Positions 5,366 to 64,000 of a stretch of DNA of 64,000 nucleotides are shown here, piece after piece. Each line of letters begins with the position of its first letter. The first letter of the stretch is position 1. This DNA comes from an uncultured Flavobacteriales bacterium (GTDB taxonomy: Bacteria; Bacteroidota; Bacteroidia; Flavobacteriales_G; Salibacteraceae). A program made the translations under genes and the position numbers. Where the stretch lies: positions 45,883-109,882 of the forward strand of contig CAJXZP010000003.1 in NCBI GenBank assembly GCA_913062955.1, written 5' to 3'. The notes beneath the pieces were generated by a model. That model was not told where the DNA came from, made no database searches, and worked only from the letters and a program-made list of their open reading frames with translations.

Positions 5366-6400
5366 ATGAATCAGTTTGGAGCTAAGGTAACGAAGGAATT
5401 AGAAAAGCAATATTCCATATCACCCAATTGGAAAAATGGAAAGTTTGAAAATTTGGTAGAAACCAAGATGGATATGAGCTTACAAACGATACCCAAACTA
5501 TTATACAAACAGTTTTTTAAGTCCCAGGGTAGAATGCCAAGGAAGCCATTAGACATAATTGCTTTTAATAAGGAGGCTTTTTTAGCGCCTTCTCAAGAAG
5601 CTAAAATGATTTGGTTTGGTCATTCGGTGGTACTGATGCGTTTAAACAATAAAACGATCCTAATTGATCCGATGTTGGGTCCAAATGCATCCCCAATAGC
5701 TCCCTTTGCCACCAAACGGTTTTCGGAAAATAGCTTGGATCTAATTGATCAATTTCCGGATATTGATTTGATTTTAATGACCCATGATCATTACGATCAT
5801 TTGGATTTGGACAGTATTAGAAACCTTAAAAACAAAACCAACCATTTTTATGTCCCTTTAGGCCTAAAACGTCATTTACTTAAATGGGGTGTGGAAAGTG
5901 CTAGGATAACCGAATTTGATTGGTGGGAGAAGCAAAGTTTTGAAGGAATTGATATTACCTATACCCCAACTAGGCACTTTACCGGCAGAGGGCTTACTGA
6001 TAGGGCAAAATCGCTTTGGGGTGGCTGGGTAATGAAAACCAAGTCACAGAATATTTGGTTTAGCGGTGATGGGGGATTTGGGGCACATTTTAAGGAAATT
6101 GGAGATGCCCTAGGACCTTTCGATTTAGCATTTATGGAATGTGGGCAATACAATGAGAACTGGCACGCCATACATATGTATCCCGAAGAAAGTGTTCAGG
6201 CCACTTTAGATGCAAATGTGAAAAGAGCATTACCGGTACATTGGGCTGGGTTTGCATTAGCTCAACACCACTGGAAAGAACCCATAACTAGGTTTGTAAA
6301 AGAGGCGCATAAAAAAAAGTTAGATATTTTCACTCCTCAAATTGGTGAAATGTTTGATGCCCATTGTATCTCCGGGAATTGGTGGGAGTCATTAGATTAA
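5366..6400 (+). CDS. MBL-fold metallo-hydrolase (NAPE-PLD/RomA-like)
   Basis: WFGHS, THDHYDHLD, PTRHFTGR, FSGDGG, ECGQYN, IHMYPEE, PVHW motifs. Confidence 0.9.
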   Translation: MNQFGAKVTKELEKQYSISPNWKNGKFENLVETKMDMSLQTIPKLLYKQFFKSQGRMPRKPLDIIAFNKEAFLAPSQEAKMIWFGHSVVLMRLNNKTILIDPMLGPNASPIAPFATKRFSENSLDLIDQFPDIDLILMTHDHYDHLDLDSIRNLKNKTNHFYVPLGLKRHLLKWGVESARITEFDWWEKQSFEGIDITYTPTRHFTGRGLTDRAKSLWGGWVMKTKSQNIWFSGDGGFGAHFKEIGDALGPFDLAFMECGQYNENWHAIHMYPEESVQATLDANVKRALPVHWAGFALAQHHWKEPITRFVKEAHKKKLDIFTPQIGEMFDAHCISGNWWESLD

Positions 6401-6409
6401 TTTATTGTT

Positions 6410-6913
6410 TTGGTACACAAAGGAAATATTAAAAGAGCTGAAAAATCGGATATTCTAGGGATATTGGAAATTTTGAATTACGAGATCACTCATTCTACCG
6501 CTTTATACGAATATGAACCCCGGTCCTTGGCCCAACAATTGGATTGGTTTATGGACAAGCAGGAGAATAATTTTCCGGTTATTGTGGTTGTTAAAGAAGG
6601 TAAAGTACTAGGATTTGGCAGTTTTGGAGCATTTAGACCCCGACCAGCATATCGATTTACAGTAGAGCATTCCGTATATGTCCATCATGAGTTTCATGGA
6701 CAAGGAATAGGGAAACGACTATTAAAGCAATTAATAGCCTTGGCAAAAGAGGATGGTTACCATTCTATGATAGCCGTGATTGATAGTTTAAACGCTGGTA
6801 GTATCCAGTTTCATACTACCTTTGGTTTTGTGGAAATTGGTCAACTTCGAGAAGTAGGATATAAGTTTGATCGTTGGCTAGATTTGACATTAATGCAATT
6901 GAGGATCGAGTAG
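6410..6913 (+). CDS. GNAT N-acetyltransferase, phosphinothricin/methionine-sulfoximine (Pat/YncA) type
   Basis: AYRFTVEHSVYV, GQGIGKRLL, GYKFDRWLD. Confidence 0.88.
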   Translation: MVHKGNIKRAEKSDILGILEILNYEITHSTALYEYEPRSLAQQLDWFMDKQENNFPVIVVVKEGKVLGFGSFGAFRPRPAYRFTVEHSVYVHHEFHGQGIGKRLLKQLIALAKEDGYHSMIAVIDSLNAGSIQFHTTFGFVEIGQLREVGYKFDRWLDLTLMQLRIE

Positions 6914-54893: not shown

Positions 54894-57800
54894 ATGAAAA
54901 ATCTTTTTCTAGTATTTGGATTAATGTTTCTCTCGTTCATGAGTATGGGACAAAAATCGGAAGGACCCTTCTCCCTTGACGCTGAAAAATTCCCGAAGGA
55001 TATGAAAGCTTTTTTGGAGAAATCAAATAAGTCTCAGAGTGGGGGGATTGGGAAAAAACTAGATAAAGTATGGGTTTCGGGCTTTTATTCGGTCGAAGAT
55101 CAAAAACGAATAATTAAAGAGGCCAATCAATTGGTGAAAATTAGAATGAGTAATTTTCCTGATTTGGCTTATTTTATTGAGATGATCAATGGGTATCCAG
55201 AGTCGGGAATGGATAAAAATCAATTTTATACGTGGTTTGGCATCTTAGAAACGTATTCAGAAAACCCGAAAAAGAAAAAAAAACTATCCAAGTTATTGGC
55301 GTTCTCCAATAGTTTTTTCGATTCTAAATCTTTGTTTAGAACAAAATCAAAGTCGGTAGACTGGCGCGTAGATAACTATAACTTTAAATATGAGGTAGAT
55401 GGAAATTCCGTTATTCTTGATTTTGAAAACGTAAATTTATCGTGTCATACCAAGGGTAATTTTGCCGAAATGCAAAATACCACGGGTGCTTTTGACATTT
55501 TTGAAAATCTTTGGATAGGAGAAGGTGGAAAAGTAACCTTTGAAAGGGCTGCTTCGGACCCCGAAAAAATTTGGGTAGAGGTTGCCAAGTATGCTATTCA
55601 ATTAAAATATTCAAAATATACAGCTGATTCGGTGGTGTATCATAACCCTAAATTTTTAAGTCAACCCCTCCTTGGATCCTTAACCGATAAGGTGTTGGCT
55701 AAGCAACAATCAACTATGGTGAGTTACCCTCGGTTTCAATCCTATAATGTACACATCCCTATTAATAATTTAGTAAAGGATGTCGATTATTTGGGTGGTT
55801 TTGCGCAACAAGGGGCCAAAATCATTGGTACTGGAACCCTAAAAGAACCTGCGATATTATCATTTTCAAGAGAAGGGAAACCTTTTATGAAAGTAACGGC
55901 TCAGCGTTTTTTAATGAAAATAAATGCATCCGTTCCTGATAGCCTGCCAATTGAATCTGATAACACAAAGACTAAAAGTGTTCGGAACAGTATCGTTTCT
56001 TCCAATGCTCGTATGGTTATGTATATGGATGGAGATTCAATTTTACATCCGGGCCTGAAGTTTAACTTTTTTACAGACGAAAGGTTAGTTAATCTTGTTA
56101 GGGTGCGAGGAGAAATGTCTGAAACTCCCTATTTTAACACCTTTCATAATATTGAAATGCGTTTTGAAGTTTTGAACTGGTTTATGGATAATCCTATAAT
56201 TGATTTCACTGCGATCGAAATGAATACCGAAAGATCGGCATCCTTTGAATCCCAAAGCTTTTTTAAGAAAAGGAATTATGAAAATTTACAAGGGAATAGT
56301 AGTTGGAACCCTTTAGGGAGAATGAAAAGGTGTGCCATCAAATACGATACCAATGTATTGTCCCTCCGTGAGATGTCTGGGTGTATGCAAATCCCTGCTA
56401 CGGGTGTTGAACCGATGCTTTTAAGATATATGGTAATGGGATATTTGTCTTATGATTCGGATATTAAAGAAGTGACTCTGTACCCTAAACTGTTTCATTC
56501 CGTGAACTCCTTTTCGGGTAAGGAAGATTATGATGTTATTAAAGTGCATTCCGATGGGCGGAAGTCAAAGAATCGAAAAAATGCAACTTTAAATTTAATG
56601 AACTATGATTTAACCATTTATGGGGTGAATAGTGTCACTTTAAGTACAAATCATAATGTAAAGGTCCTTCCTGAAAAAGGGATTATTGTAATGAAGAAAA
56701 ACCGAGATTTTGACTTTAATGGAATTATTGCTTCTGGAAAAGTGGATTTTTATGGTCGAGATTTTTCATTCAATTATGACAATTTCGTATTAGAAATGCC
56801 CGTGTTAGATTCCATGCAGATTTGGGCAACTACAGACGAGGTGGATAAAGGGGGGTACCAAATGGAAGCTCGGGTTAGAACCCTTGTAGAAGGTTTAACG
56901 GGTGACTTGAAAATTGATCACCCAGAAAATAAATCTGGAAAGAAAGATTTACCAGAGTACCCTATTTTTAGATCCGAACAGGAGTCTTATGCCTACTATG
57001 ATAAGAAAACGGTATTTAATAAGATCTATAATCGGGATGAATTTTATTTCAAGTTGGATCCTTTTGAAATTGATTCATTAGACAAATTTACGAATGAGGG
57101 TATTGCTTTTGAGGGTGTTTTTACCTCTGCCGGAATTTTACCCGACATTCGTGAGTCTTTAACGCTTCAAGAGGATTTTTCGTTAGGCTTTAAAAGAATT
57201 GCACCCCCTGGAGGATATCCTCTTTATGGGGATAAAGGAAGTTTTGAAAATGAAATTCATTTGTCGGATGAAGGACTGAAAGGGAATGGATACCTTTATT
57301 ATTTGACGTCTACCGCTGCCTCAGATGACTTCTATTTCTTTCCTAAAGAAGTGAGGGGTATAACCAAAATGGTTGAAATTGAAGAGCAAATGGCTGCCGT
57401 AGAATACCCAAATGTATCGGCAGATACCACCGAGTTACGTTGGGTCCCTTACATTGATGAGTACTTTTTAAGTTCCATAAATGGAAAGGAACCTATTCAT
57501 ATGTTTGGAGGTATTGTAGAACATAAAGGGCGAATAAAATATACGCCTAATGATATGACAGGTAGAGGGATTAGTGCGTTTGAAGGAGCTCGGTTGTATT
57601 CCGATTCTATGATATATTCATTTTATAAAATTCACGCAGATACGGCTAATTTCGACTTGGGAAGAAAAGGATTAGAAACCTTGGATTTTTCCTCCGAAAA
57701 TGTGCAGGCTGATATTGATTTCAAAGAACGGAAAGGGGAGTTTGTTTCTAATACAGGGGCCAGTTTAACAACATTTGAGCAGGTAATGTATCAAGCGTAT

Positions 57801-59432
57801 TTGGATCGATTTACTTGGTTTATGGATAAAGAGGAATTGGAAGTTTCTGCTGCTGGAAAAAAAGTCGTTCGTGGAGCTAATGAGGTTCAGGTCGAGGGGG
57901 CAGAGTTTATTTCCATTAATCCTACGCAGGATTCGTTGAGATTTAATGCGAAGACCGCTCGTTATAGTTTAGCGAAGGTAGAGCTAAACGCTAGGGAAGT
58001 GAAGTTAATTAATGTAGCTGATGCGGAAGTGATTCCAAATAAAGGGTTGGTAACCATTTATAAACATGCAGTAATGGAAGTGTTGGATTCTTCACAAATT
58101 ATTGCAAATACCGAGCTTAGGTATCATACAATTTATAATGCCAGAACGGATATTCAAGGTCGATGGAATTTCAAATCAAGTGGGAATTATGACTACATGG
58201 ATGAAAACGGACTTAAGCAGGTTTTAGAACTTACTTCGGTGGGGGTGGATAGTACCCGACAAACCTATGCTAAGGGTATCATATTAGAGGATGATGACTT
58301 CTCATTAAGTCCAATGTATCGCTTTAGAGGTAAAGTAAATTTGATTGCGAGTAGAAAAAACTTAACGTTTGATGGATACGGGAAATTGGTACATGAATGT
58401 AAGAATATTCCTCCTGCATGGTTTTCCTTTTTAGGAGAGGTGGATCCCAATGAGGTTGTTATTGCTATTGATGAAACTATTATGGATAATGATGGAAAAG
58501 ATTTGTTTGCTTCCGTAATCATGCCGCGTGATTCCAATTTGATGTATGGCGCCTTTATGAATAAAAAGAGAAGCTATAGGGATGTCCCAGTAAGTTTGGC
58601 TACTGGATATCTTGAATTTGACCCTTCTGGGAGAAGATATCGAATTTCGAATCTTCAAAAACTGAATGAACAATCCTATCCCGGTAATTACATCGCAATT
58701 AACACCAAAGACTGCTCCATTGAAGGGGAGGGGAAATTGAATTTTACGCAAGATCTAGGTCGTGTAAAAGTGCAAGCTGTGGGTAACTATACGTACAATA
58801 GCGTTAATAATAAAGCGGTATTTAATACCTCAATGACTGTTGATTTTCTTTTTGATGATGGTTTATTAGCGTTGATTATTGCTGACGCCCAAAAAGCGGA
58901 ATTGGAACCTACAGAAATGAATGCTAATTATGAATTGACATTGCGTGAATTGATGAAAAAAGAAGACGCAGATGAAATGATTAGTAAGATGGGACTTTCT
59001 AAAAATGTGAAAATTCCCGAGGAATTACGGAAAACGATGTTCTTCTCACAACTTAAATTCGTTTGGAACGAAAATACGAGCTCTTATATCTCCCAAGGGA
59101 AAATTGGAGTTGGGAACTTCGGTAAAACACCTGTTAATATGCTCTTTGATGGTGGGGTGGAGTTAGTTCAGAAGCGTGGACAAACAGATATTACTATTTA
59201 CCTTGAAATTTCCCCAAGTAATTACTACGTGTTTGGGTATAGAAGTAAAACAGGTCTGATGAGTGTATATACTACTAATAAAGAATTTATTGTGAAAATG
59301 CGTGAAATAAAATCGGATAAGAAAAGAATTAAACGTGACGGTGAGATTCGTCAATTCTTATTTATGCCGGGACCTAGAAGCTTAAGGACAAAATTCTTAT
59401 TGCGAATGGAGGATGCGAAATCACAGGAATAG
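54894..59432 (+). CDS. Large exported beta-rich hypothetical protein (1512 aa)
   Basis: Signal peptide (SMGQ) and a long open frame abutting prmA; no catalytic motif recognised. Confidence 0.8.
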   Translation: MKNLFLVFGLMFLSFMSMGQKSEGPFSLDAEKFPKDMKAFLEKSNKSQSGGIGKKLDKVWVSGFYSVEDQKRIIKEANQLVKIRMSNFPDLAYFIEMINGYPESGMDKNQFYTWFGILETYSENPKKKKKLSKLLAFSNSFFDSKSLFRTKSKSVDWRVDNYNFKYEVDGNSVILDFENVNLSCHTKGNFAEMQNTTGAFDIFENLWIGEGGKVTFERAASDPEKIWVEVAKYAIQLKYSKYTADSVVYHNPKFLSQPLLGSLTDKVLAKQQSTMVSYPRFQSYNVHIPINNLVKDVDYLGGFAQQGAKIIGTGTLKEPAILSFSREGKPFMKVTAQRFLMKINASVPDSLPIESDNTKTKSVRNSIVSSNARMVMYMDGDSILHPGLKFNFFTDERLVNLVRVRGEMSETPYFNTFHNIEMRFEVLNWFMDNPIIDFTAIEMNTERSASFESQSFFKKRNYENLQGNSSWNPLGRMKRCAIKYDTNVLSLREMSGCMQIPATGVEPMLLRYMVMGYLSYDSDIKEVTLYPKLFHSVNSFSGKEDYDVIKVHSDGRKSKNRKNATLNLMNYDLTIYGVNSVTLSTNHNVKVLPEKGIIVMKKNRDFDFNGIIASGKVDFYGRDFSFNYDNFVLEMPVLDSMQIWATTDEVDKGGYQMEARVRTLVEGLTGDLKIDHPENKSGKKDLPEYPIFRSEQESYAYYDKKTVFNKIYNRDEFYFKLDPFEIDSLDKFTNEGIAFEGVFTSAGILPDIRESLTLQEDFSLGFKRIAPPGGYPLYGDKGSFENEIHLSDEGLKGNGYLYYLTSTAASDDFYFFPKEVRGITKMVEIEEQMAAVEYPNVSADTTELRWVPYIDEYFLSSINGKEPIHMFGGIVEHKGRIKYTPNDMTGRGISAFEGARLYSDSMIYSFYKIHADTANFDLGRKGLETLDFSSENVQADIDFKERKGEFVSNTGASLTTFEQVMYQAYLDRFTWFMDKEELEVSAAGKKVVRGANEVQVEGAEFISINPTQDSLRFNAKTARYSLAKVELNAREVKLINVADAEVIPNKGLVTIYKHAVMEVLDSSQIIANTELRYHTIYNARTDIQGRWNFKSSGNYDYMDENGLKQVLELTSVGVDSTRQTYAKGIILEDDDFSLSPMYRFRGKVNLIASRKNLTFDGYGKLVHECKNIPPAWFSFLGEVDPNEVVIAIDETIMDNDGKDLFASVIMPRDSNLMYGAFMNKKRSYRDVPVSLATGYLEFDPSGRRYRISNLQKLNEQSYPGNYIAINTKDCSIEGEGKLNFTQDLGRVKVQAVGNYTYNSVNNKAVFNTSMTVDFLFDDGLLALIIADAQKAELEPTEMNANYELTLRELMKKEDADEMISKMGLSKNVKIPEELRKTMFFSQLKFVWNENTSSYISQGKIGVGNFGKTPVNMLFDGGVELVQKRGQTDITIYLEISPSNYYVFGYRSKTGLMSVYTTNKEFIVKMREIKSDKKRIKRDGEIRQFLFMPGPRSLRTKFLLRMEDAKSQE

Positions 59433-59508
59433 CGGATTATAACAGGCTCGTAATCAGTGATTGATAAAACTAATGAACAATAAAATGTGAATATCATGTT
59501 TATAACTT

Positions 59509-59538
59509 GTTGATAACTCAAATATTAATCTATATTTG
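59509..59538 (+). promoter_or_regulatory. sigma70 promoter for the PlsY-like gene
   Basis: GTTG, 18-nt spacer, TATATTTG (59531-59538); supports a start at ATG 59546. Confidence 0.45.
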
Positions 59539-59545
59539 GCTACTC

Positions 59546-60139
59546 ATGCAAGTATCAGAATTAATATTGGTAGCCTTTTTAGTATGGCAAATAAGTTCAA
59601 TGCCTCTTCCGGTTTGGATTGCTTCCGCATTTTTTGGAGTCGATTCAGATGATTACAATGAGAAACAGGATTGGGCGGAGAACAAATTTTCGTTTGAAAA
59701 TAACAAGTGGGGTTTAATTGTCTTTGGGAGTGAGTTTCTAAAAGGGTTTGCTGCTATTGTTCTGATTAACTTGGTGAGTAACCAGGAAGTATTGTTGCTA
59801 GGTATGGTTCCGTTTCAATATCTTCTGGCTGCTATAGTTGTATTAGGACATACATTTCCAGTATACAATGAATTCAAAAGAACGCATAGCATGGGAACCT
59901 ATTTTGGGCTGTTTGCTGGTTTGTGGTTGGCACCTGCATTATTGGCGTTAGCCGTTTTTGTAGGGGCTTGGGCATGGGCTAAGAAAGTTTCAATAACTTC
60001 TTTAATATTGTCATTAAGTAGTCTACTTATTGTTACCTTTATTTTTATCGATGTAAATGCATTGGTAATTACTGTCGCTCTTTCTTCTCTATTAATTGGT
60101 GCAAATTTTAAACAAAGATTAGAGGTGGTTCGAGCGTAA
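59546..60139 (+). CDS. PlsY-fold membrane protein with degenerate catalytic motifs
   Basis: Collinear with PlsY scaffold (P..VWI...FFGVD, EFLKG, LGHTFPV, QRL) but lacks GSGNxGATN, GGKGVAT and HxxN. Confidence 0.7.
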   Translation: MQVSELILVAFLVWQISSMPLPVWIASAFFGVDSDDYNEKQDWAENKFSFENNKWGLIVFGSEFLKGFAAIVLINLVSNQEVLLLGMVPFQYLLAAIVVLGHTFPVYNEFKRTHSMGTYFGLFAGLWLAPALLALAVFVGAWAWAKKVSITSLILSLSSLLIVTFIFIDVNALVITVALSSLLIGANFKQRLEVVRA

Positions 60140-60174: not shown

Positions 60175-63100
60175 ATGTCTCCAGTTTTTAACGGAAATTT
60201 ACGTCTACTATTAGTGTTGGTTCTGATCTTCATTTCCAGTTTGGGGTTCGCTCAAACCAAGGAGGTGGATGAACTTCAAGAACGAGCAAATATCCTTTTT
60301 GAACAGCGCAATTATCTTGAAGCTAAGGATTTATATTCTCAATTGGTTTCCTTGTATCCGAAAGATGAGAACTACAATTACCGCTTTGGAGCATGCTTGA
60401 TGTATGTGGATGAGGATAAGGCATACCCTATAAAATTCTTAGAATATGCCGTGAGTAAACCAAATGTAGATGTGGATGCATTTTATTTTTTGGGTAAAGG
60501 GTATCACTATAATTACCGTTTTAACGAAGCCATCACTTATTTTAATAAGTACAAGGATAAATTAAGCCATAAAAATAAATCCAAATATCCAGTAGATCAA
60601 GACATCCGATTTTGTGAAAACGGGAAATTACTGTTGCGAAATATTACGACTCCATTGGTCATGAAGCGGACCAAAGTTTCGGCTGCAGATTTTTTCACGT
60701 CCTTCAAAATTCAAGATATGGGAGGGCGTATGTTATATGCACCCAAAGAATTGCACTCTTCTGTCGATAAAAAGAAAGGGTATGTTCCTGTAATGTATAA
60801 AAATGACAATAGTAATATTGTGTATTTCTCTTCTTACGGTGATAACGATAAAAATGGGTTGGATTTATTTCAAGTTTTTGTGGCTAATAACGGAGAGCTT
60901 GGAAAACCCGTTAGATTACCCGAAACCATAAATACTAAATATGATGAGCGTTTTCCATTTTTAACAGAAGATCAAACAAAGTTCTATTTTTCGAGTACCG
61001 GTCATAATAGTATGGGAGGAGCCGATATCTATGTGTCTTCTTTTGATAAGATGACTAAATCTTTTGGTGCTCCGGTGAATTTAGATTATTCCGTAAATAC
61101 TCCCGATGATGACTTTATGTACGCTGAAGTTGGAGATGAAGGTATTGCGTTTTTTGCATCCAATAGAAATTGTGAAAAAGGAAAAGCCTTCGTTTATAAA
61201 ATTAATGCCCAACGTAAACACTATGAAATCGCAGTTTTAGCAGGTTTTTTCATTTCCGATGATACCAAATCATGTAAAATTACGGTAGAGGATTTAGAAG
61301 ATCATATTGTGGTTGGCACTTTTAATACCAATAAAAAATCGGGACAATATGTCATGCGATTAAAAAATGGGGGGAAATATTCCTTTTTGGTGGAACCTTA
61401 CGGTGGGGAAGTAGCTTATAAGGGCAGGGTTGAACTGCCTCATCAAAATGAAATAAAGGTGTTACGACAGGAAATTCTGATTGTTAAAGATGACGCTGGT
61501 GAACGATTAATTATCCGGAATTTATTTGAAGAAGAAAGTGCCCCTGGGGATCAAAAAATTATTGCACAAGTCTTTGCCGAGAATGCGAATATGGAAGAGA
61601 CCAAAGAACCTGAAATTACCATTAGTCCAAAACAAATGGTGACTCAATTGGAAAAAACGAAAGTTATTCAGGAGAAAAAAATGCAGGAATTGGTCGCTCA
61701 AAAAGAAGCCAGTTATCTCCTCGCTAATAGTAAACGGGAATTGGCTCATAAGGACTTAGAATTAGCGGATCAGTTAGAAAAGCAAATTGATTTAATGAAT
61801 AACTCGAACGAAACCAAAAAACAGCAAAAAGAGTTTGCCGAGTTGATTCAAGATGCAAGAGTCCATTCGATAGAAGCAGAGGCAGCATTTGAAATTGGGA
61901 GGAAGTACGAAACACAAATTTCGGAGGCTCAAACACAGTTGAACCAAACCGAAGGATATTTAATGAGAATAAAATCAGCTGTGCACGAAAACTCTTCAGC
62001 TGCAGCGACTGAACTGTATACCAATTTTCAAAACAACAAAGTTGAAATTGGGGTGGACCAAGTGGGGCAAAACGTAGAATCCGATATTGAACGAGAAGAG
62101 GCTAAGATGAACCGCTTTATTGCTAAAGCAGCTACCTTAGAGGAGTTACAGGCAGATTTAAAAAATGATATTTCTACCGCCAAAGCAACAAAGCGAGCTA
62201 CGAAAAAGAAGAAGGAAAAAGAAGCGATTCAATTGACAATTGAGAATTTACAAGAAGAAATAGAACCCTTGGCAGAGGATAAAAAAAGCGCACTTGCTAC
62301 AGCTTCGGAAATTGAATTGACCATTAATGCCCTACGTCATGAAAGAGCTTTATTAAATGAGGTGAAATCTACATCTACGCATCGAAATGAAAATTCAGAA
62401 CGGGTGACCGAGGATCAAAAAGTAGCCATGTTGGCCAGTATTCAAGCTACTTCTCATGAAATTGATGCAATGGAACAAGTTTCTAAAGAAATGGTTTCGT
62501 CTACTTCTTCAGAAACCCAAATGGCTGAAAACGATGATGGTGATGTCCAGGGTGTCACACAGAACGAAGTAAGTACAGAAAATGGGAATATGGAACCTAC
62601 GGGATCCAATTCTGAATTATCTGCTACTGAAGAATTTGCTATTCTGGAAAGTGAAACGGGGTCAGAATTGCCTATTTCCAACGAAGAAAACTTGGAAGAA
62701 GGCGTGGTGGAGGAAGCTGTAAGTTCATCTGAGGAAGAGGTTAATACATTTTTAGAAAATGCGGGTAACGAAAATTTTGAAGCAACCACAGAGTTTACCG
62801 AAGCAGGTAAATCGGAAACGCAAGAGGCTGAAAACAACCTAGAACCTTCGAGTTCTAGTTCCACCGTAAACGCTGGGGGTACGGTTAATATGGGTGCCGA
62901 AAATGGTTCTGTAGCTTTAGTTCCAGGGATTTCGACTTTACTGCCAGATGGTTCAGATGGTTCAGATGGTTCAGAGGGTTCCGATGAGTCCATTAATTCA
63001 AATTCGGAAGAAGTCTTTACGGAGAGTAATAATGAAAATTCATTAGTGAATAATGAACGAAGTGATTTGGAGGGTTCAAACAATTCCATAGATAACGAAA

Positions 63101-64000
63101 ATACCATCAATGGTGAAAGTTCGGAATTAAGTGTAGATTCCAAGACATTAACTGAAACTTCAATTCCCTTAGTTACTAGTGGGGAGTCTAATTCCATTAC
63201 CGAATCAGATGAATCAAATTCTCAAGGTCAACCCGAATCCGAGTATTTTGAGTATACCCAAGAATATGAAGAGCCTGTAACTGAAGTAGTTATGGTGGAG
63301 GGAGAAAGAATTCCTCTAGAGATTACATCCAATACAGGGAAAGTAAAATACAAGGAAGAGGAATTGAAGAATGCGAAAGTGAACTTTAGTAATTCCGCCT
63401 ATAATGAAGGATTTGAAGCCCAATATGCTTCTGTAAAACAAGAAACCAATCAAAGTGAACGTGCCAAAGAGACCCAACGAATTAATTACAATTGGGTCGT
63501 AGCTATTGAAAAGGAAATCGCTGAATTGTCCTATGCAAAGCAGCATTCATCTCATGGAGCTATAACCTCTCGGATTAATGTGAAAATGGAAGAGTTGCAA
63601 GATCAAGCCTCCCAAAAAAGAAATTTCATGGCATTAAATTCCCGCATTATTAAGCAATTAGATGCACAAGAAGAAATGTTGGTCAATGCGAATACCCCTA
63701 GTATTGATGAGCAAACAAGTCCAGAAGAGCTAAATAATCAACTCGTACAAGAGGATGGATTAGATACGGCAAATACCAATACTAGTTCTGAGAGTTTTAC
63801 CAATGAAAATTCCATAAATGAGTTCTTGGAGGAGTCCGTGGCTATTCCGGAAACGAATGGGATGAACATCGAAGAATTAGCAAATGCTTCCGAAGAAGTA
63901 GCGGTTTCAAATGCCAACGAAAGCCCACTTAATTCCAACCCAGAATCTTTTAGTGAAAATAAGGAAGAGGAAAGTACGAATGAAAACGGGACCGAAAATG
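60175..64000 (+). CDS. Giant exported protein, 3'-truncated by window edge: TPR, PD40 propeller repeats, coiled-coil, then acidic low-complexity region
   Basis: Not in the ORF track (no stop in window). Hand translation: MSPVFNGNLRLLLVLVLIFISSLGFAQ signal, AFYFLGKGYHYNYRFNEA TPR, INTKYDERFP..FYFSS.GHNSMGGADIY PD40, then E/S/N-rich sequence; no stop seen over ~1275 codons. Confidence 0.85.
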   Translation, partial: MSPVFNGNLRLLLVLVLIFISSLGFAQTKEVDELQERANILFEQRNYLEAKDLYSQLVSLYPKDENYNYRFGACLMYVDEDKAYPIKFLEYAVSKPNVDVDAFYFLGKGYHYNYRFNEAITYFNKYKDKLSHKNKSKYPVDQDIRFCENGKLLLRNITTPLVMKRTKVSAADFFTSFKIQDMGGRMLYAPKELHSSVDKKKGYVPVMYKNDNSNIVYFSSYGDNDKNGLDLFQVFVANNGELGKPVRLPETINTKYDERFPFLTEDQTKFYFSSTGHNSMGGADIYVSSFDKMTKSFGAPVNLDYSVNTPDDDFMYAEVGDEGIAFFASNRNCEKGKAFVYKINAQRKHYEIAVLAGFFISDDTKSCKITVEDLEDHIVVGTFNTNKKSGQYVMRLKNGGKYSFLVEPYGGEVAYKGRVELPHQNEIKVLRQEILIVKDDAGERLIIRNLFEEESAPGDQKIIAQVFAENANMEETKEPEITISPKQMVTQLEKTKVIQEKKMQELVAQKEASYLLANSKRELAHKDLELADQLEKQIDLMNNSNETKKQQKEFAELIQDARVHSIEAEAAFEIGRKYETQISEAQTQLNQTEGYLMRIKSAVHENSSAAATELYTNFQNNKVEIGVDQVGQNVESDIEREEAKMNRFIAKAATLEELQADLKNDISTAKATKRATKKKKEKEAIQLTIENLQEEIEPLAEDKKSALATASEIELTINALRHERALLNEVKSTSTHRNENSERVTEDQKVAMLASIQATSHEIDAMEQVSKEMVSSTSSETQMAENDDGDVQGVTQNEVSTENGNMEPTGSNSELSATEEFAILESETGSELPISNEENLEEGVVEEAVSSSEEEVNTFLENAGNENFEATTEFTEAGKSETQEAENNLEPSSSSSTVNAGGTVNMGAENGSVALVPGISTLLPDGSDGSDGSEGSDESINSNSEEVFTESNNENSLVNNERSDLEGSNNSIDNENTINGESSELSVDSKTLTETSIPLVTSGESNSITESDESNSQGQPESEYFEYTQEYEEPVTEVVMVEGERIPLEITSNTGKVKYKEEELKNAKVNFSNSAYNEGFEAQYASVKQETNQSERAKETQRINYNWVVAIEKEIAELSYAKQHSSHGAITSRINVKMEELQDQASQKRNFMALNSRIIKQLDAQEEMLVNANTPSIDEQTSPEELNNQLVQEDGLDTANTNTSSESFTNENSINEFLEESVAIPETNGMNIEELANASEEVAVSNANESPLNSNPESFSENKEEESTNENGTEN
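62945..62980 (+). repeat. In-frame 9-bp tandem repeat (CAGATGGTT x3 + CAGAGGGTT) encoding DGS-DGS-DGS-EGS
   Basis: Read directly from the sequence. Confidence 0.85.

Follow-up and report, generated by a model that had tools for sequence, protein, structure and literature searches.

The window analysed here, a 64,000-nucleotide stretch of a contig from an uncultured member of the Flavobacteriales (family Salibacteraceae), contains an open reading frame at 59546..60139 on the forward strand that encodes a PlsY-like protein, here called P0001. The frame runs uninterrupted from an ATG at 59546 to a TAA at 60139 and specifies a membrane protein of 197 amino acids with the seven-transmembrane (7-TM) PlsY fold. 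Upstream lies a gene for a 1512-amino acid protein with a signal peptide (54894..59432, forward strand), and downstream, starting 36 nucleotides past the stop of the plsY-like gene, is a gene for a PorE/CHU_0125-like protein with TPR and PD40 repeats (60176..64000, forward strand), which is longer than 1270 amino acids and runs off the window. These two are the conserved left and right flanks of plsY; the three adjacent genes are on one strand, 36–114 nucleotides apart, in an order that is kept across the whole taxonomic family, and no terminator was found between the plsY-like and the PorE-like gene. The wider surroundings are housekeeping genes (PrmA, TIM, folP and cdaA). The 1512-amino acid secreted protein found no family match in a Pfam and NCBIfam search, and it is conserved throughout the order, at 31–73% identity, directly upstream of plsY or of an empty slot. 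At window positions 62400–63999 the PorE-like protein has a long, acidic, low-complexity region rich in Ser, Glu and Asn, including SDGSDGSEGSDE, that is poorly conserved between relatives.

Immediately 5' of the plsY-like gene is a promoter-like block of about 70 nucleotides (59476..59545, forward strand) that is nearly invariant in eight orthologs. Its sequence resembles a promoter of the Bacteroidota type, with a −33 TTG at 59507–59509, a 21-nucleotide spacer and a −7 element, TATATTTG, at 59531–59538, 7 nucleotides before the ATG. Phylogenetic footprinting across the eight orthologs found the boxes invariant and the spacer differing in sequence at a fixed length, and the block is almost invariant despite the saturation of synonymous sites nearby. 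Both the frame and the promoter had been called intact in a first-pass annotation of this sequence, and both calls are borne out. Tandem GTTnATAAC repeats (59498–59506 and 59509–59517) overlap the −33 element and are possibly the binding site of a regulator. The upstream element occurs once in the genome, and it is missing from G007, a genome of the same genus in which the gene has been deleted, and from the region 5' of the gene in P0040, a more distant metagenomic form, and in G010, a sister genus. Two other readings of the block were rejected. An RNA element or regulon operator does not agree with the lack of an Rfam match, a fold z-score of −1.4, which is not significant, and the single genomic copy; an N-terminal extension of the protein from the in-frame TTG at 59507 does not agree with in-frame conservation that goes no further than the promoter boxes, or with a spacer that changes at all codon positions.

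P0001 belongs to the PlsY family by homology. It scores 78.3 bits against Pfam PF02660 (G3P_acyltransf), where the cut-off is 24.1, and 45.6 bits against TIGR00023, the equivalog for PlsY, well below the cut-off of 137.2; PF02660 is matched by 20 of the 20 members of the ortholog alignment A2. Automatic annotation names the orthologs 'glycerol-3-phosphate acyltransferase PlsY'. The sole relative of P0001 among solved structures is the PlsY of Aquifex aeolicus (5xj5; E 1.4e-8, HMMER). An AlphaFold2 model of P0001 (pLDDT 84.8, pTM 0.82) was searched with Foldseek, and its only significant PDB matches were the PlsY structures 5xj5–5xj8 (TM 0.66–0.70, probability 1.0). A second model, made from an alignment without canonical PlsY, was weaker (pLDDT 69) and again matched PlsY only (TM 0.54–0.59). 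As both models match only PlsY structures, the PlsY scaffold is kept. The helices of the hydrophobic acyl groove are still present in the AlphaFold2 model, and the scaffold landmarks P20, D33, K66, GH-FP and F110 are still present in the protein, which reads PLPVWI at 20–25, FFGVD at 29–33, EFLKG at 63–67 and LGHTFPV at 100–106. Of 1.84 billion representative proteins scanned, only 395 matched at E <= 0.001; among the best 24 of these 395, every one outside the small motif-less clade described here carries the canonical motifs.

How PlsY holds its substrates has been described for the Aquifex enzyme, where the acyl-phosphate is bound by T41, H92 and the backbone of K104–A107, with T41 at the carbonyl and the H92 side chain as a ligand of the phosphate, while the phosphate of glycerol-3-phosphate (G3P) is clamped by S35, R45, K104 and N180 and its 2-OH is held by S142 and H177 (Li et al., 2017, PMC5700162). 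In the same work catalysis is substrate-assisted, His177 positions G3P and is no catalytic base, and single changes at S35, T41, R45, K104, H177 or N180 leave 1–25% of activity (Li et al., 2017, PMC5700162). We compared residues, in Aquifex numbering, in an alignment of 28 canonical PlsYs, 21 P0001-type orthologs and three other degenerate forms, taking as reference GSGNxGxTNxxR for motif 1, the phosphate hole GGKGxAT for motif 2 and HxxNxxR...E for motif 3. Fifteen experimentally important positions are essentially invariant across the 28 canonical PlsYs. In P0001, both the HMMER alignment to 5xj5 and a 51-sequence alignment place NEKQDWAENKFS (38–49), KRTHSMGT (111–118) and GANFKQR (185–191) opposite motifs 1, 2 and 3. 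Within motif 1, T41 is Glu in 21 of 21 orthologs, R45 is Ser, Ala, Gly or Val, and S35 and N37 are variable; T41E and R45S thus swap two binding residues for acidic or neutral ones. Where canonical PlsY has GGKG, the 21 orthologs have R/K-T/S-x-S-M-G, so that G102 has become Arg, Lys, Pro or Ala, G103 Thr or Ser, K104 is variable and G105 is Ser in all 21. Hydrophobic or basic residues replace H177, N180 and R183 of motif 3, and the C-terminus of the orthologs stops short of E189. Among the tabulated positions only N42 and H92 are retained in 21 of 21 orthologs, the latter as H102 of P0001 (it is Gln in P0040), and S142 is still Ser in 11 of the 21. The cytoplasmic loops around these sites are remodelled, as WAENKFSF (43–50) and GHTFPVYNEFKRTxSMG (101–117). 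Judged by the alignment, P0001 has lost nearly all of the side chains that bind acyl-phosphate and G3P, and the enzyme name carried by these genes is almost certainly wrong. The first-pass annotation had described a protein of PlsY fold with all three motifs lost; the strings it quoted are present and stand opposite the motifs to which it assigned them, the alignment to the acyltransferase family that it proposed gives a clear match with the motifs missing, and only its description of His177 as the catalytic histidine has to be given up.

The gene is nonetheless maintained. Its orthologs fall into about 26 clusters at 90% identity and are 42–79% identical to P0001, and the approximately 20 full-length orthologs aligned are all 195–199 amino acids long, with no stop or frameshift. 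Pairwise dN between orthologs is 0.21–0.40 and dN/dS 0.09–0.28, with dS saturated; in the closest pair (79% amino acid identity) dN is 0.115, dS 0.76 and omega 0.15. Under a Goldman-Yang codon model of eight genes the maximum-likelihood omega is 0.087, with a lnL of −3824.2 compared with −4118.6 when omega is fixed at 1, a gain of 294 units. These values indicate that the gene is under purifying selection and is no decaying pseudogene; relaxed selection, which the first-pass annotation had named as an outcome that would count against it, is not what the omega of 0.087 and the constant length of the orthologs suggest. As a separate observation, in the closest pair (59546–60139 against 6001–6594 of locus L047) dS is measurable in the plsY-like gene, whereas it is saturated in PrmA and in the gene for the 1512-amino acid protein at similar or higher protein identity, and recombination, constraint on codons or mere noise could lie behind the oddly low value. 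Conservation within the clade peaks in TM1/helix 2 (FLVWQISAMPxPVW), in loop 3 (GHTFPxYNEF..S.G.YFG) and at E45–N46, and given the latter two peaks it lies partly in the former active site. The protein is, however, less tightly constrained than the enzyme. With the upstream neighbour gene as a relative-rate clock, canonical PlsY shows 60–65% identity at a neighbour identity of 40%, whereas the motif-less protein shows only 54–57% at a neighbour identity of 72–78%, a relative rate about 2.7 times that of canonical PlsY.

The P0001 gene is the sole PF02660 match in a 3.9-Mb genome that is 95.8% complete. Searching the genome by tblastn with four PlsYs from sibling genera gave no further match, and tblastn with sibling PlsX gave nothing better than E > 2, so neither the Pfam search nor these sibling-protein searches found a canonical plsY or a plsX hidden elsewhere. 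When both flanking proteins were compared by tblastn with 20-kb loci from relatives, six sibling genera proved to have a canonical plsY (177–206 bits) in the identical slot, between the 1512-amino acid and PorE-like proteins, and the more distant motif-less forms of P0040 and G010 were also found in the plsY slot. By its position, then, the P0001 gene is the ortholog of plsY and not a paralog. The first-pass annotation had suggested looking for a canonical plsY in the rest of the genome; no such gene turned up, and the gene in question is itself the plsY ortholog. It had also named as a counter-case that this might be the genome's only PlsY with activity, and here the first part stands, since P0001 is the sole homolog, while of a capability for activity there is no sign. 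In G007 and in at least four sibling genera the gene is missing and the slot is empty, with the two neighbours intact and adjoining, 40–240 nucleotides apart, and tblastn at E <= 10 found no plsY remnant in the empty slots of these PlsY-less relatives.

The rest of the acyl-phosphate pathway shows a matching distribution. Across 41 relatives PlsX (PF02504) is confined to genomes with canonical PlsY, with one possible exception, the 66%-complete G039, which has PlsX and no PlsY match; G039 aside, genomes with a degenerate PlsY or with none are without PlsX. In G025 PlsY was seen only as a 66-amino acid fragment. PlsX is absent from eight of eight genomes of P0001's own genus, one of them closed, and on these genome sequences the whole PlsX/PlsY pathway is gone from the genus. 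Scores against PF02660 are sharply bimodal across the order, with canonical proteins at 176–206 bits, motif-less ones at 51–77 and no match in the rest. Other suppliers and replacements were looked for and rejected: DegV/FakB, as a source of acyl-phosphate, is absent from 25 of 25 relatives searched, and PlsB (PF19277), as a replacement G3P acyltransferase (GPAT), is absent from 41 of 41. The genome of P0001 thus has neither PlsX nor FakA/B to supply acyl-phosphate. It does have GpsA and CdsA, which indicates that G3P-based phospholipid synthesis persists, and as G3P lipids would still be made without PlsX, PlsB or FakB, the host must use another GPAT. Seventeen genomes of the order and class (G007, G008, G014, G017, G020, G023, G026–G034, G036 and G037) have none of PlsB, PlsX and PlsY. 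The first acylation of phospholipid synthesis in these Bacteroidota would be carried out by an enzyme other than PlsB or a functional PlsY. In a Bacteroides thetaiotaomicron control there was a PF02504 match and no PF02660 match, and either PlsY was missed there by our first-look filter or that species has PlsX without a recognisable PlsY.

Two proteins of the PlsC/LPLAT type are candidate replacement GPATs on the basis of their sequence and distribution. One is a 370-amino acid acyltransferase encoded outside the window (G000:C1:32168-33268, reverse strand), with an HX4D motif, THQNAFMD, and a C-terminal membrane domain; full-length orthologs are found only in P0001's genus and in G010, precisely the group from which PlsX and the PlsY motifs have disappeared, and it does not account for the other PlsY-less genera. 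The second is its paralog of about 430–470 amino acids (G000:C42:5825-6340), which is present in every genome of the family. The number of PF01553 acyltransferases was also tried as a marker of the replacement and gave no clean pattern.

In a maximum-likelihood tree the genus-level group, P0040 and G010 fall together with 100/100 support, the stem leading to them is long, at 1.43 substitutions per site, and T41E, R45S and G105S are common to all three. These shared changes in a monophyletic clade would indicate a single origin followed by differing erosion, as P0040 still has HxxNxxK and has lost H92, and the G010 form has lost N42 (Ile). The sequences thus argue for one origin of the motif-less forms, with the limit that long-branch attraction could inflate their monophyly. 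A very divergent PlsY-like reading frame in another family without PlsX (L021, G035:C38:22389-22925, reverse strand), which lies outside the syntenic slot, keeps GSGH..N..R but neither H92 nor motifs 2 and 3, and this degenerate PlsY arose independently.

We hypothesise that P0001 is a plsY ortholog kept as a pseudoenzyme for a PlsX-independent role, an explanation that in our judgement is the best overall and is reasonably probable. Operationally, a pseudoenzyme has lost essential residues and kept purifying selection, and P0001 has done both; the first-pass annotation's term, a repurposed pseudo-enzyme, is a fair one for a protein with the PlsY fold, lost binding residues and continued selection. 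The lineage has lost PlsX, and no other known source of acyl-phosphate is present. PlsY then lost nearly all of its substrate-holding side chains, along with the phosphate hole formed by GGKG and the H/N motif at the C-terminus, during rapid change along the stem branch that was followed by renewed purifying selection. The 7-TM scaffold, H92, N42 and the newly fixed polar loop residues are kept, and the gene has a strongly conserved promoter of its own. On our hypothesis P0001 would no longer make lysophosphatidic acid, which would come instead from a different acyltransferase, probably a member of the PlsC/LPLAT family, and it would have survived through a second, PlsX-independent job of the PlsY scaffold in the inner membrane. 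The likeliest such job may be non-catalytic, with a lipid or partner protein bound by the cytoplasmic pocket, as now remodelled, and by the membrane surface. The clean deletion of the gene in one congener and several sibling genera suggests a role that is useful, not indispensable.

The main rival is that the remodelled pocket is a putative new active site for a different lipid reaction, which we regard as unlikely, if well worth weighing. Such a site would consist of the retained His102 beside the new Glu45, with N46, Y107, N108/E109 and S115, and could, for example, transfer an acyl group from a thioester through a His-Glu dyad like that of the HX4D acyltransferases, use an acceptor that is cationic or carries no phosphate, or carry out a hydrolysis. 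The most conserved positions outside the scaffold are indeed in the former active-site loops, and the conserved polar residues E45, N46, H102, Y107, E109 and S115 are as compatible with a new catalytic site as with a binding site. Moreover, E45 and H102 should adjoin, as T41 and H92 of the Aquifex enzyme both touch the head group of the acyl-phosphate, an omega of 0.087 is typical of enzymes and the acyl groove helices persist in the model. However, the dyad is not clade-wide, since P0040 has Gln at H92, and in the G010 type N42 is replaced by Ile; nor have co-occurring pathway genes been identified.

The remaining readings are weaker. The first-pass annotation had placed P0001 in a possible new envelope module, a dedicated unit with the two giant flanking envelope proteins, and the close spacing on one strand, the lack of a terminator before the PorE-like gene and the family-wide gene order would be in keeping with this. 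However, a fully canonical plsY has the same arrangement, so that the gene order is older than the motif loss and, being ancestral and common to the canonical-plsY genera, is no evidence for a new module; the flanking genes, which remain side by side and undamaged in genomes with plsY deleted, do not depend on it. The module thus finds no specific support, and we consider it improbable. We give still less credence to a slowly decaying relic of the lost pathway with no function of its own. Deletion of the gene in G007 and several sibling genera, the 2.7-fold relative rate and the independent degenerate frame in the PlsX-less G035 are what such a relic might leave, but omega = 1 is overwhelmingly rejected, some 20 orthologs have remained full length, uninterrupted and constant in size while synonymous sites became saturated, the new residues are fixed in 21 of 21 and the promoter is invariant. 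That P0001 is still the cell's GPAT, fed with acyl-phosphate from an unrecognised source, is scarcely credible: it is the sole PlsY homolog in a genome without PlsB, GpsA and CdsA show the need for a GPAT and substrate-assisted catalysis needs no catalytic base, but the S35, R45, K104 and N180 clamp, H177, T41 and the GGKG loop are gone, acidic residues have entered the pocket, single mutations at these sites remove 75–99% of activity, there is no PlsX or FakB, and relatives without PlsY, PlsX and PlsB must have another GPAT in any case.

If P0001 is indeed a pseudoenzyme, a bolder extension is that it represents a natural separation-of-function allele of PlsY, preserving the PlsX-independent role predicted from E. 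coli, in an order whose GPAT is neither PlsB nor PlsY, and this combined proposal we put forward only tentatively. The preserved part would then be the 7-TM scaffold, the TM1/helix-2 face, H92 and the new E-N / Y-N-E-F / S-x-G pocket, and the candidate GPATs would be the clade-specific 370-amino acid LPLAT-family enzyme and its universal paralog of about 440 amino acids.

PlsY is taken to be an essential enzyme with one purpose and is viewed as a target for antibiotics. A lineage in which the pathway and the active site have been dismantled and the protein is under strong selection argues for another function of the PlsY scaffold, and the conserved surface left in P0001 shows where that function may be sought. 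The comparison also exposes Bacteroidota that have GpsA and CdsA and lack PlsB, PlsX or a functional PlsY. The case further bears directly on the question of what makes E. coli dependent on PlsY in the absence of PlsX.

In E. coli a PlsX-independent essential function of PlsY has been inferred (Rex et al., 2024, PMC11633183; DeHart et al., 2026, PMC13060810), and PlsY binds YejM within the membrane, though it is not this contact that is essential (DeHart et al., 2026, preprint, PMC13060810). Like the 'third role' of the E. coli protein (PMC11633183), that of P0001 would matter without PlsX-made acyl-phosphate and in a diderm, and both hosts have another route to lysophosphatidic acid. However, E. 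coli PlsY keeps all of the catalytic motifs that P0001 has lost, and as its third role could be catalytic, the analogy serves only as a lead. Compared with Aquifex PlsY (YgiH/YneS family, 5XJ5–5XJ8), P0001 is alike in homology, 7-TM fold, H92 and N42 and is without S35, N37, T41, R45, G102–G105, K104 included, H177, N180, R183 and E189, and unlike a functional PlsY it is housed in a genome where neither PlsX nor FakB is present to produce the acyl donor. Our literature search found no mention of a motif-less PlsY or a PlsY pseudoenzyme. Most described pseudoenzymes are paralogs that exist beside an active copy. P0001 resembles described pseudoenzymes in having kept the fold, lost catalytic and substrate-binding residues and remained under purifying selection, and it differs from most of them in being the orthologous copy itself, left after the loss of a whole pathway.
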